DNA of 64,000 bases, from positions 17,669 through 81,668 of IMG/VR virus record IMGVR_UViG_3300025450_000021; one strand, given 5' to 3'. This document shows, piece after piece, positions 2,167-7,714 of the stretch (within the stretch, counting starts at the first letter, position 1; the number at the start of each line of letters is the position of its first letter). A program made the position numbers and the translations under genes. This DNA comes from a virus (lineage: Duplodnaviria > Heunggongvirae > Uroviricota > Caudoviricetes). The notes under the pieces were generated by a model. That model made no database searches and was not told the DNA's origin. It saw only the letters and a program-made list of their open reading frames with translations.

Positions 2167-2745
2167 TTAGCGTCTTTTGATTATTGCTAACTTTTTACCT
2201 GTTTTGTTTTTCATGGTTTCCATAGGTGCGCCAAATAAACTTACACTATTTTGATCAAGGGCACTAACGCTTTTTACAGGTTTTTTATTAGCATTATTGG
2301 CGTAATTAGGGTTAGGAACACTGGCAATACTAGCACTACTTGTAGCACCTGCACTAGCTGATTCCGCTACACCATGTTTAGCATCTAACCCATAATTTGG
2401 ATTGTGTCTTCGCTGACCTAATACTTGATGTATTGCTTGAAATTTACTGTTATATGGATACGGTTGTCCATTTGCCATTCTATCTTCTGGACTACGTCTA
2501 AATTTTTCTGCTAGGTCGTGAAGTTCTTCATTTGACAGATGTGAAAAAGGTTTAAGCCACTCTTCATATCTTCTTACGTTTGCTTCACCTTCTTTTTTTC
2601 CTAAGGTGACGCCGTGTTGGTAACCTTTTTCATAATGATCTGATGAAGGACCATATATAGAACTGGCACGTGGATTTCGATGACCTCGTTTACCATCATT
2701 TACGCCATCTTCATAAGGGCCTTCTAACAATTCTTTAATTTTCAT
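2167..2745 (-). CDS. hypothetical protein, member of the MKIKELLEG N-terminal motif family
   Basis: 192-aa ORF. Its N-terminus MKIKELLEG is shared with 7340..7714 (MRIRELFEG) and 40225..41037 (MKIWELLDEG). Confidence 0.6.
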   Translation of the reverse strand: MKIKELLEGPYEDGVNDGKRGHRNPRASSIYGPSSDHYEKGYQHGVTLGKKEGEANVRRYEEWLKPFSHLSNEELHDLAEKFRRSPEDRMANGQPYPYNSKFQAIHQVLGQRRHNPNYGLDAKHGVAESASAGATSSASIASVPNPNYANNANKKPVKSVSALDQNSVSLFGAPMETMKNKTGKKLAIIKRR

Positions 2746-2972
2746 TTTTTGATTCCTCTAAACCCATTACCTACTGCACGTTCTCCACCCATAAATTTAG
2801 GTAAACTAAACCATAGTTTGAACCATTCTTCAGTTCCAGGTTGTATATTTTGTTCACGTTCGATAATGCGTTTCTCTGTACCAGTTATACTGATGTTACT
2901 TCCGCCATAAGGTTGCAAGCCCTTAAATTCATTAATGCCTGCCAACTTCTTAAGACGTGCTAGTTCATCCAT
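2742..2972 (-). CDS. hypothetical small protein
   Basis: 76-aa ORF with ATGA overlap to both neighbours. Confidence 0.4.
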   Translation of the reverse strand: MDELARLKKLAGINEFKGLQPYGGSNISITGTEKRIIEREQNIQPGTEEWFKLWFSLPKFMGGERAVGNGFRGIKK

Positions 2973-3412
2973 TACTTCAAGCTCGCTCTTAACATCCAGC
3001 TATGCTTTTTATGTGCATCTTGACGGTCGGCTAAGAAATTGCTTAATCCATGATCGCCATTTTGTTCTGCCATTTCAAAAGTAATACGGAAAATATTAGC
3101 CATTTTTTCGCTGTCTTGTAACAATTCGCTCAGCATCTCGTGAAATCCTGGAACATCATTTTCATCACGTACATTAGTTAACATACTAAACTTTTGTAAA
3201 CTTCCTGGTGCATAAATTTGTAATGCACGTAAATGTTCTGCAAATGTGTCGATACTACCGTATACTTCTAAATAAATTCTTTCAAACAATGCATGTAGAC
3301 TTTCAAACAATGGACCTTCTACGTTCCAATGAAAGTTGTGTGCTTTTAGATAAAAACTAAATTCACTGGCAAATGCTGTTTTAAGGGCTAAATGATATTT
3401 GTTATGTTCCAT
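2972..3412 (-). CDS. dps: Dps/ferritin-like DNA-protection protein
   Basis: KAHNFHWNVEGPLFESLHALFE matches the Dps ferroxidase region (HWN...H...E). The C-terminal GDHGLSNFLADRQDAHKKHSWMLRASL matches the Dps D-x-x-T-x-D-x-L...DK..W.L.S helix. 146 aa is a typical Dps length. Confidence 0.7.
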   Translation of the reverse strand: MEHNKYHLALKTAFASEFSFYLKAHNFHWNVEGPLFESLHALFERIYLEVYGSIDTFAEHLRALQIYAPGSLQKFSMLTNVRDENDVPGFHEMLSELLQDSEKMANIFRITFEMAEQNGDHGLSNFLADRQDAHKKHSWMLRASLK

Positions 3413-3936
3413 TATACACCGTATTTGTTTGGCTTGCGTTTAGCTACTGGACTTTTTTGGTTTACAGTCGACAATTCTAAACTTTCAGGAGTTGTTCGTA
3501 ATTCAATGTCGTGACCGATACGTTTAATATCTTTGGTAATTTTAGCATGTTCTTGTTCTGAAAAAGGCATAAAGAATGGATGCTTACCAAAATTATCTTT
3601 TGAAGCCACGTTTCTTTCACCGCCGGCAATAGCTACTCCAATACGATACATGCTGTAGAAATCGCTAGGAATATCTTGAACACTAAATGCACCCGGCATA
3701 GCCGCTACGGCCTCTATAGGTACATCTCCTTTAGTACTACCATATTCGGTGTTGCTTTGACTTTGACTATGTGCTTCGTGTGGATCTAGACCAAAATCGC
3801 CTAATTTTTTCTTCATAGGAAAATCTTTAGCCACGTAGGGTTTGACAACCTGGGTTTGTTTGGCTTTTTTAGAAGCCTTGGCAGGAGAATCTGTTGGTTT
3901 TACAGATTGTTCAACTATGAATTCTTTCGCTCTCAT
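3412..3936 (-). CDS. hypothetical protein, paralog of the C-terminal domain of the adjacent 1133-aa protein
   Basis: 174 aa. It aligns with the last ~170 aa of ORF 3936..7337: MRAKEFIVEQ vs MRANEFIKKQ, YRIGVAIAGGE vs YRFGIAMAGAH, PVAKRKPNKYGV vs PVANKKRNKYGV. Confidence 0.6.
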   Translation of the reverse strand: MRAKEFIVEQSVKPTDSPAKASKKAKQTQVVKPYVAKDFPMKKKLGDFGLDPHEAHSQSQSNTEYGSTKGDVPIEAVAAMPGAFSVQDIPSDFYSMYRIGVAIAGGERNVASKDNFGKHPFFMPFSEQEHAKITKDIKRIGHDIELRTTPESLELSTVNQKSPVAKRKPNKYGV

Positions 3937-6900: not shown

Positions 6901-7337
6901 TTACCACTACCAAATCCTAGCAATGTAGTGTCGCCGATCTGTTTGTTTGTATATTTTGTTAAGAATTCTTTAACTTGTGGTTCTAAATCTCTATTGCATT
7001 GTGTATCGATATCGCCCACACGTGGTTTATGTTTGGCAAATTCCTCATCACTAATACCTTCAGTGTTAAAGAAATGCAAACTACTACCGCTTAGGAATTC
7101 TTTGCTCTTTAGTAGGTTAGGTTCCCATAAATTTTTTCTAGTTTGTTTATGAAATGCTAGATTAATGTCATGCAATAACTTATTTAAAAGTCCAACCATG
7201 TACGTACGATTATGTACTGCTAAATCTATCTTGTCTGCATAGTGTACTGGTTCACCACTGTCTGCATCGCCAATGCTAAGGTTTCCGCCTTCGTTTAAAG
7301 CAGAGTGGTTACGATAAAATAATTCTCTAAGAAACAC
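3936..7337 (-). CDS. large multidomain protein with class-I nucleotidyltransferase (HxGH...SxTxxR) domain, possible KxDG nucleotidyltransferase motif, C-terminal paralog domain
   Basis: 1133-aa ORF. AVVAIGSFVGHIGHEQL is a GxFxxxHxGH motif and GTGMSFTQLRN resembles ISSTxIR, as in the PPAT/NMNAT/cytidylyltransferase fold. An internal KIDGFGG matches the ligase/capping motif I only weakly. The N-terminus is MFLRELFYRN. Confidence 0.7.
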   Translation of the reverse strand: MFLRELFYRNHSALNEGGNLSIGDADSGEPVHYADKIDLAVHNRTYMVGLLNKLLHDINLAFHKQTRKNLWEPNLLKSKEFLSGSSLHFFNTEGISDEEFAKHKPRVGDIDTQCNRDLEPQVKEFLTKYTNKQIGDTTLLGFGSGNEQYNALFQFANPPIKIQIDFEFGEYEGGVPNDWFKFSHSSEWNDVSNNIKGVFHKYLYRALAGSIKVHAHLKSSEGRGKAKVTTVTPDHLSKYSFGVSGKQGGGLSEPYSPVVGDNDEPQELPHPENPQQQLPVMQVAKPETRVYDQHLHSQFKKLFLRNNPNAEPTPEDLKLQWSFLGTVDLIGKYLSKQEQHETVKRFFEICFEPGSQMIERDDPKSDADIKFAAIDQMLEKLNLTNMRSLAVDMAKEYEGEFLDLEKFKKSYQRTPDQAGKKIQYGRHRKDAIAGGTWPDWRKNSTEQIFEAEVKAQLRKNMPHMKDLKAIDFLDLVDELHDNGKFQLKNIPLNVKIDGFGGRFGKDSEGKPFMGTSNTPPRYEAGFLKYHQAKGTQDPEILGRAKKFDDLFNEMIKAVKLVDDAAGPELLMNKQVTCEVLFLPFATETEEGKLKFVGIHYNKLPRGVQLALVPFRVADATTGEDVPDAAKIIKTITSIGQQGSIMFISNALTQNKPLDVTEIINVLDNIDELKRIVSDTHGKRDRASVQLRKEVEEKLAPVKLELEKAIINDPNIVGKDLLGKDYEGIVINSRLGPIKITSQEQRDVISAKMAAKASARTERPRENSNKTAVVAIGSFVGHIGHEQLFDYTIKKAQQVGGDPYLFIGNAEGKNDPIPPNVKVQTWHKMYPNYAANISTVTHEGGTLIQKIKHELINPLPGKPPRYDNIIIMVGEDQAGLNMPAALMKAVNKFQGYEHVKVSLETTPRGTGMSFTQLRNILKDPKATPQQQLALWEKGFDVNKLGRAWIQHLMDLTRKGMGITTPKHTHHVQKPAIPAPEQEPLNIKEANYWIRKMRANEFIKKQLSEGDIPANGKKFDKSEMDAVRGALSMPGISINKANGNPYSGYRFGIAMAGAHSKANHEHHQITPPAGPMAGDPLLTVFADEEYDIIKNAAKMVMAGPIVQLSDMRSHELPTTNKTSPVANKKRNKYGV

Positions 7338-7339
7338 TA

Positions 7340-7714
7340 TTAATCCTTGTATTTGCCATCAGCATGATGTGTACTGTGTTCATCATACAATTTTTCACAA
7401 ACTTGACCTAGTGTATCTTCATCTAATTCATCTGGTAGTTCACGGATGGGAAATTTTTGAACGTATATTTTATAACATTCTTTGACAGCTTCTTTAAAGA
7501 TTTCAGGCTTAGGATCTTTTTTATTTTCTCTGACATGAAGGAATCGATCCAATGCAGGATGAAAGAATCGACGATAGCAGTGATCGTCTTGTTCCATAAA
7601 GTGTGCTATATCATCAACTAAATCGTAGTTAATTTCACGCTCGCCACCTTCTTTAGCTTGTACATAATCGGCATCTTTAAAAAAATTACCTTCAAATAGT
7701 TCACGTATACGCAT
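7340..7714 (-). CDS. hypothetical protein, MRIRELFEG N-terminal motif family
   Basis: 124-aa ORF. A GATAAATAC late-promoter-like motif lies ~47 nt upstream, on the minus strand. Confidence 0.6.
   Translation of the reverse strand: MRIRELFEGNFFKDADYVQAKEGGEREINYDLVDDIAHFMEQDDHCYRRFFHPALDRFLHVRENKKDPKPEIFKEAVKECYKIYVQKFPIRELPDELDEDTLGQVCEKLYDEHSTHHADGKYKD

Follow-up and report, generated by a model that had tools for sequence, protein, structure and literature searches.

Introduction

The mechanism of the capsid-targeting leader of bacteriophage T4 has been known since 1996. In the T4 internal protein IPIII, residues 4 and 7 of the leader MKTYQEFIAE govern targeting while residues 8 and 10 govern processing, and an Asp at position 10 prevents cleavage without abolishing targeting (PMC9026906). 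Sites of the T4 prohead protease gp21 include ITE-6 and LTE-619 in Alt and LIE-9 in gp21 itself (PMC5694885). For T-even phages, the literature already describes leader-like sequences on their variable internal proteins (PMC9026906), and in phages phiKZ, 201phi2-1 and SPN3US, where a gp21-related protease cuts many internal head proteins after Glu, the propeptides are thought to target the prohead (PMC5694885). For the clade of jumbo phages resembling Pseudomonas phage PA5oct, no description of such leaders was found in the literature. The subject of the present analysis is a stretch of 64,000 nucleotides (nt) of viral DNA, positions 17,669 to 81,668 of the IMG/VR record IMGVR_UViG_3300025450_000021 and hereafter the window, in which five proteins carry related N-terminal leaders. 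By their sequence and by analogy with T4, these leaders are probably capsid-targeting propeptides cut by a gp21-type protease.

A nucleotide search of the region against cultured phages gave no match. At the protein level, the clamp loader of the window is 56% identical to that of PA5oct, followed by those of Phosso, Atu_ph07 and RsoM2USA, and PA5oct homologues were found for 16 window proteins. Bog-lake metagenomes are the source of identical or near-identical contigs, and 80 related loci were drawn from IMG/VR, with some of them on contigs 345-356 kb in length. These matches place the window in an uncultured freshwater jumbo phage that is a distant relative of PA5oct and a distant member of the T4-like assembly world.

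The leader motif and its occurrence in the window

The original prediction, made by a model from the sequence alone, had named five open reading frames (ORFs) with related N-termini, and all five are present on the minus strand: 2167..2745 (MKIKELLEG), 7340..7714 (MRIRELFEG), 3936..7337 (MFLRELFY, with a GTG start), 3412..3936 (MRAKEFIVEQ) and 40225..41037 (MKIWELLDEG). They encode proteins of 192, 124, 1133, 174 and 270 amino acids (aa), respectively, and are referred to below by these lengths. All but the last belong to a cassette of genes read from 7714 to 654. Counted from Met1, the leaders span 8 residues in two of the five, 9 in two and 16 in the 1133-aa ORF. The pattern first proposed for them, E-[LF]-[LFI]-x-E at residues 5-9, fits just two of the five N-termini. 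A better description is M-[KR]-x-x-E-[LF]-[LFI], with F at position 2 in the 1133-aa ORF, followed at a variable distance by [LI]-x-E, which takes the forms LLE, LFE, LDE, IVE and LNE in the window. The sequence MRANEFIKKQ, which had been offered as a further N-terminal variant, does exist but lies within a protein, beginning at residue 995 of the 1133-aa ORF (nt 4355..4317).

The resemblance goes beyond chance. When the whole 64 kb was translated in six frames, the core [KR][IALVF][KRWN]E[LF][LFI] turned up five times, each time directly after a Met. When a regular expression was defined independently of position (M[KR]..[DE][LIFM][LIFMV]), it matched four of the 73 ORF N-termini and one of 398 internal Met residues (Fisher p = 0.002). 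A position matrix trained on relatives gave the five N-termini scores of 11.7-21.1 bits, compared with -4.8 for the next-best ORF among the other 68 in the window.

Three further N-termini of the window resemble the leaders, in a different register, and are listed here as candidates. The 95-aa ORF 41073..41360 (minus strand) is a possible sixth leader protein; it starts MKTIRDYVRLIE↓NIE↓AEG (arrows mark predicted cuts throughout), in the register of T4 MKTYQEFIAE and very close to the T4 sequence, and has an ATAAATA 13 nt upstream. The other leader-like starts are found in 54085..54537 (minus strand; MIREFINIIE↓TMEG) and, from Met4, in 59855..60454 (minus strand; MKEWMELVGYKITE↓GGD).

A detachable signal conserved at the protein level

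Outside the window the motif is present and conserved in other genomes of the same lineage, as would be expected from the original prediction, and more widely. The leader codons differ among the five genes, which have no upstream sequence in common. Across 30 distinct coding sequences of the 124-aa family, M-R-I-x-E-L-[LF]-E is kept even as five codons are used for Leu6 and three for Arg2. Because the codons differ and synonymous changes keep the peptide, the motif is conserved at the protein level.

That the conserved N-terminus is a detachable signal and not part of a shared fold, as had also been proposed, is borne out by several kinds of evidence. Leaderless orthologues exist: the N-terminal domain (N-domain) of the 1133-aa protein has orthologues that begin with MGGN, exactly where the junction lies, one each from Vibrio phage pv27 and Xanthomonas phage X1 and four from metagenomes, while about 50 others have leaders. 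Where relatives have two or three genes in place of the 1133-aa fusion, each piece bears a leader of its own (MLLRELFLRE↓A.., MNLRELFE↓S..TAAFCFGRFNPPHQGH and MLLREFLNRTGE↓GK..). The leader is present in all 57 full-length homologues of the 270-aa protein, the 58th (P0144) being an N-terminally truncated fragment, and it alternates within this family between a MKIWELLxE type and a MRAKEFIxE type; both types are therefore interchangeable. Finally, the leader is disordered in AlphaFold models. The 124-aa protein has a mean predicted local distance difference test score (pLDDT) of 84.6 with an average of 50 over residues 1-10, and in the N-domain of the 1133-aa protein (mean pLDDT 92.6) the sole segment below 50 is residues 1-17, exactly MFLRELFYRNHSALNEG. 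The leader is thus an add-on that is portable and dispensable for the fold. The accompanying claim that the remainder of each protein is unrelated needs one amendment. The 174-aa ORF is 33% identical (E = 6e-10) to the C-terminal ~140 residues of the 1133-aa ORF, and as a paralogue of that module it means that not all bodies are unrelated; the others are.

The predicted cleavage site

In the N-domain family, which has an invariant GGN, the leader end just before GGN was compared across 76 distinct leaders, 8-27 residues in length. Position P1 is E in 75 of the 76 and P3 is L (52), I (22) or V (2), while P2 is filled by 15 different residues and the upstream linker is unconserved. The predicted junctions of the window are LFE↓G, LNE↓GG, IVE↓Q, LLE↓G and LDE↓G. 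The suggestion that these ends correspond to the L/I-x-E site of the T4 prohead protease agrees with the window, with the logo of the 76 leaders and with the published gp21 sites.

Upstream of the site, too, there may be a likeness to T4. The T4 sequence MKTYQEFIAE had been given correctly in the original prediction (PMC8442874). Two homologue leaders, MKTFSQYLLE↓GGN and MKSFKQYILE↓GGN, match the T4 leader at positions 1-4, 7, 8 and 10. MRAKEFIVE from the window has EFIxE in common with MKTYQEFIAE at a shift of one residue. All of these stretches are too short for homology to be tested statistically.

Virion and head-module evidence from relatives

An orthologue in a cultured phage offers a link to the virion. 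It comes from Campylobacter phage vB_CcoM-IBB_35, a T4-like phage in which the gp21 protease is gene 2-54 (PMC3322345). Its gene 1-56 (HM246720.1 39251-40417) encodes a protein that starts MKLSELMFILE↓GGN.. and has 27% identity, along its full length, to the window N-domain (E = 4e-27). The product of gene 1-56 was among 38 proteins identified by mass spectrometry (ESI-MS/MS) in purified virions, with 17% coverage (PMC3322345).

In 250 kb of PA5oct sequence, N-termini of the form ^M[KRHF][LI].[DE][LIFMV] occur in eight of 89 virion-detected ORFs and two of 272 others (p = 3e-4); this expression was loosened after the list was seen, and the counts are 6 vs 2 when position 2 is limited to [KR] and 2 vs 2, not significant, with the strict window expression. 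The eight virion ORFs are gp150, gp205, gp230, gp237, gp238, gp349, gp380 and gp381. Both non-virion ORFs with such a start encode small proteins, and one adjoins gp380/381.

One of these proteins lies in the head module of PA5oct, which runs from portal gp149 through gp150, gp151, protease gp152 and scaffold gp153 to capsid protein gp154. Gp152 is a gp21-type protease with the conserved motifs DHP and GVSSRGSG, and proteases of this type are found in PA5oct and more than 100 head-module loci of the clade (112 uncultured loci were examined). Gp150 is a protein of 73 aa that is encoded beside the portal gene, at the position of the T4 core genes 67/68; it has been detected in virions and starts MKINDIITE↓GYYNP. 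A gp150-like protein is present in 34 of the 112 loci, starting in 25 of them with M[KR]A[KR][DE]LLVE↓FYDP or a close variant, and extra small genes at the same position start MKISEIMEG, MKIRDIILNE or MRLNEINE.

The same type of junction is found in the major capsid protein of the clade, at residue ~42 (..RRYLAE↓SATAGATQAGNIA, or ..LAE↓SATAGAT). Elsewhere, the capsid junction string following [LIV]-x-E was found in one family only, that of the window 192-aa protein. Relatives in this family have the capsid-type string directly after the leader, as in MKMWELLDE↓SATAGATSAASIG.

Proposed mechanism and alternative explanations

The reading offered in the original prediction is supported, in that each of its expectations open to testing held. 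Taken as T4-type propeptides, the leaders would work as follows. Late in infection, the cassette 7714 to 654 and the gene at 41037 would be transcribed, probably from ATAAATA promoters resembling the late promoters of T4. The N-terminal 8-17 residues would form a short amphipathic helix, M-[KR]-x-x-E-[LF]-[LFI], sometimes with a variable linker, and this helix would bind the scaffolding core of the prohead by analogy with T4 IPI-III, Alt, gp67 and gp68. Bound in this way, the attached protein would be enclosed when the shell forms. A gp21-type protease may then cut after the Glu of [L/I]-x-E to free the mature protein inside the head, and the cargo would probably be ejected with the DNA. That cargo would consist of a small helical protein, the 1133-aa fusion, a 174-aa paralogue of its C-terminal module, the 192-aa protein with a capsid-type second site and the 270-aa protein.

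Several observations weigh against this proposal. Homologues of the window leader proteins were detected neither in PA5oct nor in the head-module loci. Neither a gp21-type protease nor capsid genes are present in the 64-kb window, and two scans for such a protease on the same contig found only the relatives closest to PA5oct, on different contigs; this phage is expected to have both from its membership in the clade. The enrichment of leader-like starts among PA5oct virion proteins depends on the loosened expression, and the presence of the IBB_35 gene 1-56 product in virions does not show that it is located in the head or that it is cleaved. Moreover, the invariant [LIV]-x-E ahead of GGN may conceivably cap the domain as a conserved element of its structure, and the constant position of the cassette after the gene for ClpA leaves room for a chaperone-related role.

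The alternative that fares best among those considered, itself judged rather unlikely, keeps the leader as a virion-incorporation or assembly tag but not as a protease substrate, or has it route proteins elsewhere, such as to the portal, neck or tail lumen; in either case [LI]-x-E would serve binding. It can draw on the virion data of PA5oct and IBB_35, which give neither location nor processing, and on the masses observed in IBB_35, which mostly agreed with those predicted (PMC3322345), though a loss of ~1 kDa would not show on a gel. The Asp10 leader of T4 likewise separates targeting from cleavage (PMC9026906). What such a tag leaves unaccounted for is the pattern of conservation: Glu at P1 and Leu, Ile or Val at P3 stay invariant as the other leader positions drift, precisely as in the gp21 logo. 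It must also contend with the same junction at the propeptide boundary of the capsid protein and with a leader on the gene at the T4 core 67/68 position.

Since ClpA recognises N-terminal peptides, as in the case of P1 RepA, the leader may be imagined as a recognition tag for the Clp machinery or chaperones of the phage (ClpA 8361..10640, ClpP 52787..53377 and DnaJ 11105..11983) that leads to unfolding, remodelling or timed degradation. In the window, as in all relatives examined, the cassette does come directly downstream of ClpA. This arrangement is not general, however. In PA5oct, ClpA has no cassette beside it and the leader-like proteins are scattered, with one in the head module, and in the window the 270-aa gene is 30 kb away from ClpA. 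A Clp tag would also leave unexplained the invariance of [LIV]-x-E, the copy of the capsid junction and the virion location of an orthologue, and it is regarded as very improbable.

The least credible alternative, that the shared N-terminus is structural (an oligomerisation helix or first-domain cap), acts at the nucleotide level (a translation-initiation region) or arose by chance from the Lys/Ile/Glu-rich N-termini common in AT-rich genomes, the motif being short, is largely refuted by the unrelated bodies, leaderless orthologues and low-confidence leader segments of two otherwise good models, by the differing codons and tolerated synonymous changes, and by the six-frame, internal-Met and matrix controls, respectively. 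The sliver of confidence left over after these readings is reserved for explanations outside those listed.

A Sec, Tat or lipoprotein signal peptide was considered separately and rejected. The leaders have Glu at positions 5 and 8-9, can be just 8-9 residues long and lack the unbroken hydrophobic core, ~10 residues or more behind a basic N-region, of such signals. Lipoprotein-like signals of the window, such as that of 12746..13015 (MKRLLILSIIVLLAGC), look quite different.

Beyond the propeptide itself, a broader proposal is put forward tentatively, as one that may well prove wrong. The leader would mark a whole set of proteins co-injected with DNA in a very large clade of uncultured freshwater and soil jumbo phages, and the cassette would be a delivered enzyme toolkit comprising a Pol-beta-type nucleotidyltransferase, a KxDG domain, an HxGH nucleotidyltransferase, the 270-aa protein with its possible ADP-ribosyltransferase-like nature and small helical proteins. 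Such a toolkit might act on host nucleic acids or nucleotide-based defences before phage genes are expressed. As part of the same proposal, the 192-aa copy of the capsid junction and N-arm (E↓SATAGATSxxNI) would serve, in a manner not described before, for docking a protein in the shell or tuning the protease.

The cassette genes and their products

The first gene of the cassette (7340..7714, minus strand) encodes the 124-aa protein, in which the leader MRIRELFE↓G (nt 7691..7714) precedes a body predicted to be a helical bundle. Its N-terminus is the best conserved block among 20 homologues of 43-77% identity. A fold search of the Protein Data Bank with the 124-aa model gave no match, and tblastn searches of cultured phages with the 124-aa and 270-aa proteins found nothing. 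Searches of Pfam and PHROG likewise found nothing for four of the five leader-protein bodies.

The exception is the 1133-aa fusion (3936..7337, minus strand), which has matches to PHROG 19290, 12709 and 3041. Its GTG start is separated by two bases from the stop codon of the 124-aa gene (TAA TA GTG; window 7337..7342) and is supported by relatives with a start codon at the same spot, reading MLLRELF... The leader, (V/M)FLRELFYRNHSALNE↓GGN (nt 7290..7337), is followed by a body in four parts: a Pol-beta-type nucleotidyltransferase (~17-383), a KxDG middle domain, an HxGH cytidylyltransferase-like domain (763-923) and a C-terminal module. Homologues either start MGGN or have leaders ending [LIV]xE↓GGN. 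Within the N-domain, G108, D109, D111 and D165 are invariant, and Foldseek returned weak matches to Pol beta, Pol mu and poly(A) polymerases (E ~2e-3, probability 0.99, template modelling score ~0.25); together the invariant residues and the fold matches identify it as a predicted nucleotidyltransferase of the Pol-beta superfamily. The middle part corresponds to PHROG 12709 and contains, by its sequence, a KxDG motif like those of ligases and capping enzymes. The stretch 763-923 matches cytidylyltransferases of phages and has an HxGH motif. Four adjacent genes encode the domains of the 1133-aa protein in Xanthomonas phage X1 (locus L003, 2998..6347), and the N-domain stands alone in Vibrio and Campylobacter phages (loci L001 and L002).

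The C-terminal module begins with an internal copy of the leader, MRANEFIKKQLSE↓G, at residues 995-1007 (nt 4317..4355, minus strand), with a matrix score of 13.9. In relatives there is a separate gene starting MRASEFTRKKLAE↓GD. The internal MRANEFIKKQLSE↓G is best read as a relic of gene fusion, and it is possibly an internal cleavage site as well. The paralogue of the C-terminal module, the 174-aa protein (3412..3936, minus strand), has the leader MRAKEFIVE↓Q (nt 3910..3936), and the homologues of this protein start MRAKEFI[VTS]E.

The 192-aa protein (2167..2745, minus strand) has the leader MKIKELLE↓G (nt 2722..2745) and a predicted second site, GVAE↓SASAGATSSASIASV, at nt 2317..2370. On an otherwise near-identical contig (L004, 14970..16028) a 352-aa version that has the same ..GVAE↓SASAGATSSASIASV ending stands in its place. 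What lies between leader and second site is thus hypervariable, as in the internal protein loci of T-even phages. Members of this family in loci L017, L029, L046, L048, L050 and others hold a near-copy, [LIV]xE↓SA[ST]AGATSxxNI.., of the capsid maturation junction and mature N-terminus, and a similar ..VEE↓TASAGASSAGGIASV is present in the PA5oct virion protein gp203.

Turning to the gene outside the cassette, the 270-aa protein (40225..41037, minus strand) carries the leader MKIWELLDE↓G (nt 41011..41037) with an ATAAATA at 41046..41052, and its body has conserved LYHGVPDG, ISLTR and ETEE motifs. Sequence searches of solved structures with the 1133-aa protein, the N-domain profile and the 270-aa profile produced nothing significant. 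The sole match, for the 270-aa protein, was to Tpt1 (E = 1.8, non-significant), and an ADP-ribosyltransferase-like fold for the 270-aa body is only a lead.

Three genes of the cassette are without a leader of the five-protein type. The cassette closes with a 494-aa Lys/Glu-rich protein (654..2138, minus strand) that lacks an N-terminal leader, has a C-terminal region reading ..VDRMRELTGRLN.. and keeps its position in relatives. It is ~25% identical (E = 8e-5) to gp22-like scaffold proteins of the head-module loci, a weak match of low complexity and the only one obtained when homologues of window proteins were sought in the 112 loci; it may be a scaffold-like core protein. A Dps/ferritin-like protein (2972..3412, minus strand; Pfam Ferritin, E = 2e-22) lies inside the cassette at the same position in all relatives. 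The third is a 76-aa protein (2742..2972, minus strand), kept in relatives, that starts MDELARLKKLAGINEF and has the motif E-[LI]-x-R-L-x-x-L-A-G-[IV] common to head proteins. This second short motif recurs at the start of the 76-aa ORF (MDELARLKKLAGI), at the end of the PA5oct scaffold gp153 (VEELRRLAGIK) and at the start of the PA5oct virion protein gp203 (MFNINDILRLAGV). A related ending, ..IRALTKRLLG, is seen in relatives of the 494-aa ORF (L088 4725..5831 and 47322..48818 are listed with the motif). The motif may be another assembly signal.

Late-promoter-like sites and other features of the window

The heptamer ATAAATA, the core of the T4 late promoter TATAAATA, is found on the minus strand at 7761..7767, 53 nt upstream of the first cassette gene. 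There are 10 such sites on both strands of the window, a 22-fold enrichment measured for the nine that lie within 70 nt upstream of a gene start in sense orientation. In addition to the cassette, ATAAATA precedes the 270-aa gene, its 95-aa neighbour and the tail-fibre-like genes 18836..20500 and 44879..46297. A single full TATAAATA occurs at 52748..52755, 27 nt upstream of ORF 52002..52727. The almost exclusive placement of ATAAATA just upstream of genes suggests that the lineage has late promoters like those of T4. Since the cassette genes abut or overlap, 7714 to 654 is probably one late transcription unit.

The window is unusually rich in host-like genes for proteostasis and stress (8361..12000, 39558..39908, 41380..41937 and 52787..53377), which encode ClpA, peptide deformylase, DnaJ, ClpP, an Fe/Mn superoxide dismutase, an IscA/HesB-like protein and Dps. 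The ClpP homologue (52787..53377) was considered as a head protease and rejected, being 54% identical to PA5oct ClpP gp272 with the full-length architecture of ClpP. Just past the end of the window, as seen in locus L205, are genes for a radical-SAM protein, TauD and a fatty-acid desaturase.

A different N-terminal motif, MTQQ[VI]INxG..NDGTGDxxRx[AS]FxK[IV]NxNF, is common to three adjacent minus-strand ORFs, 23290..25422, 26675..27052 and 27052..39555. They encode proteins of 710 aa and 125 aa and a giant Ser/Thr/Gly-rich fibre-like protein of 4167 aa, the C-terminus of which matches the PA5oct virion protein gp124. Synteny between the window cassette and the block of PA5oct virion proteins that lies between ClpA and DNA polymerase was considered and rejected, as that block consists of tail fibres and matches window 18836..39555.

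Implications and comparison with known systems

If the leaders are T4-type propeptides, a simple sequence rule (Met1, a short amphipathic stretch, [L/I]-x-E and a small residue) would predict the head-packed proteins of PA5oct-like and other T4-related jumbo phages without proteomics; most such phages are known from metagenomes only. The rule would point to unusually large enzymatic cargo, namely the 1133-aa three-enzyme fusion that is split into separately tagged genes in relatives, as a candidate for early host takeover or anti-defence. The leaders would also offer ready-made tags for loading foreign proteins into the capsids of jumbo phages, as has been done with the T4 leader, while the 192-aa copy of the capsid junction and the recurrent RLxxLAGI motif suggest that there are further short assembly signals. 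With respect to earlier work, what is new here is a leader consensus that holds across the clade, a leader that varies in length but keeps an invariant site, a cassette of its own for tagged enzymes, the 1133-aa fusion among them, and the capsid-junction copy in the 192-aa family.

Among the known systems, gene 1-56 of IBB_35, listed with gp100 of CP220, encodes a true orthologue of the 1133-aa N-domain, with a leader, detected in virions of a T4-like phage having gp21. It differs in being a single-domain protein of 388 aa annotated as hypothetical, and neither leader nor processing is discussed in PMC3322345. The jumbo phages of the phiKZ, 201phi2-1 and SPN3US type resemble what is predicted for the window phage in gp21-related processing after Glu and in the proposed targeting to the prohead. 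However, their propeptides usually exceed 100 residues and end in the motif S/A/G-x-E, whereas the leaders of the window families have 8-27 residues and always L, I or V at P3.

T4 gp67 and gp68 and PA5oct gp150 are small proteins encoded between the portal and the protease and scaffold genes, and gp150 carries the same leader, MKINDIITE↓G. In contrast, the leader genes of the window are found outside the head module, in a separate cassette downstream of ClpA, and no sequence homology to gp150 was found. The packaged ADP-ribosyltransferase Alt of T4 is not homologous in its body to the window proteins but offers a parallel in design, as a large enzyme with a short N-terminal propeptide and a second internal or C-terminal gp21 site; ..QLSE↓G within the 1133-aa ORF and VAE↓SASAGAT in the 192-aa ORF may be compared with the latter.

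The T4 leader itself differs in three respects. The window consensus is one residue shorter before the acidic residue, leaders of the window families vary from 8 to 27 aa by way of an unconserved linker, and the cargo, known here from sequence, includes a multi-enzyme of 1133 aa and is not made up of small basic proteins. In both cases, however, a leader of about 10 residues stands at the extreme N-terminus of otherwise unrelated, fast-evolving proteins in a phage of the wider T4-like assembly type, with aromatic or aliphatic residues at its middle and [I/L]-x-E at its end.

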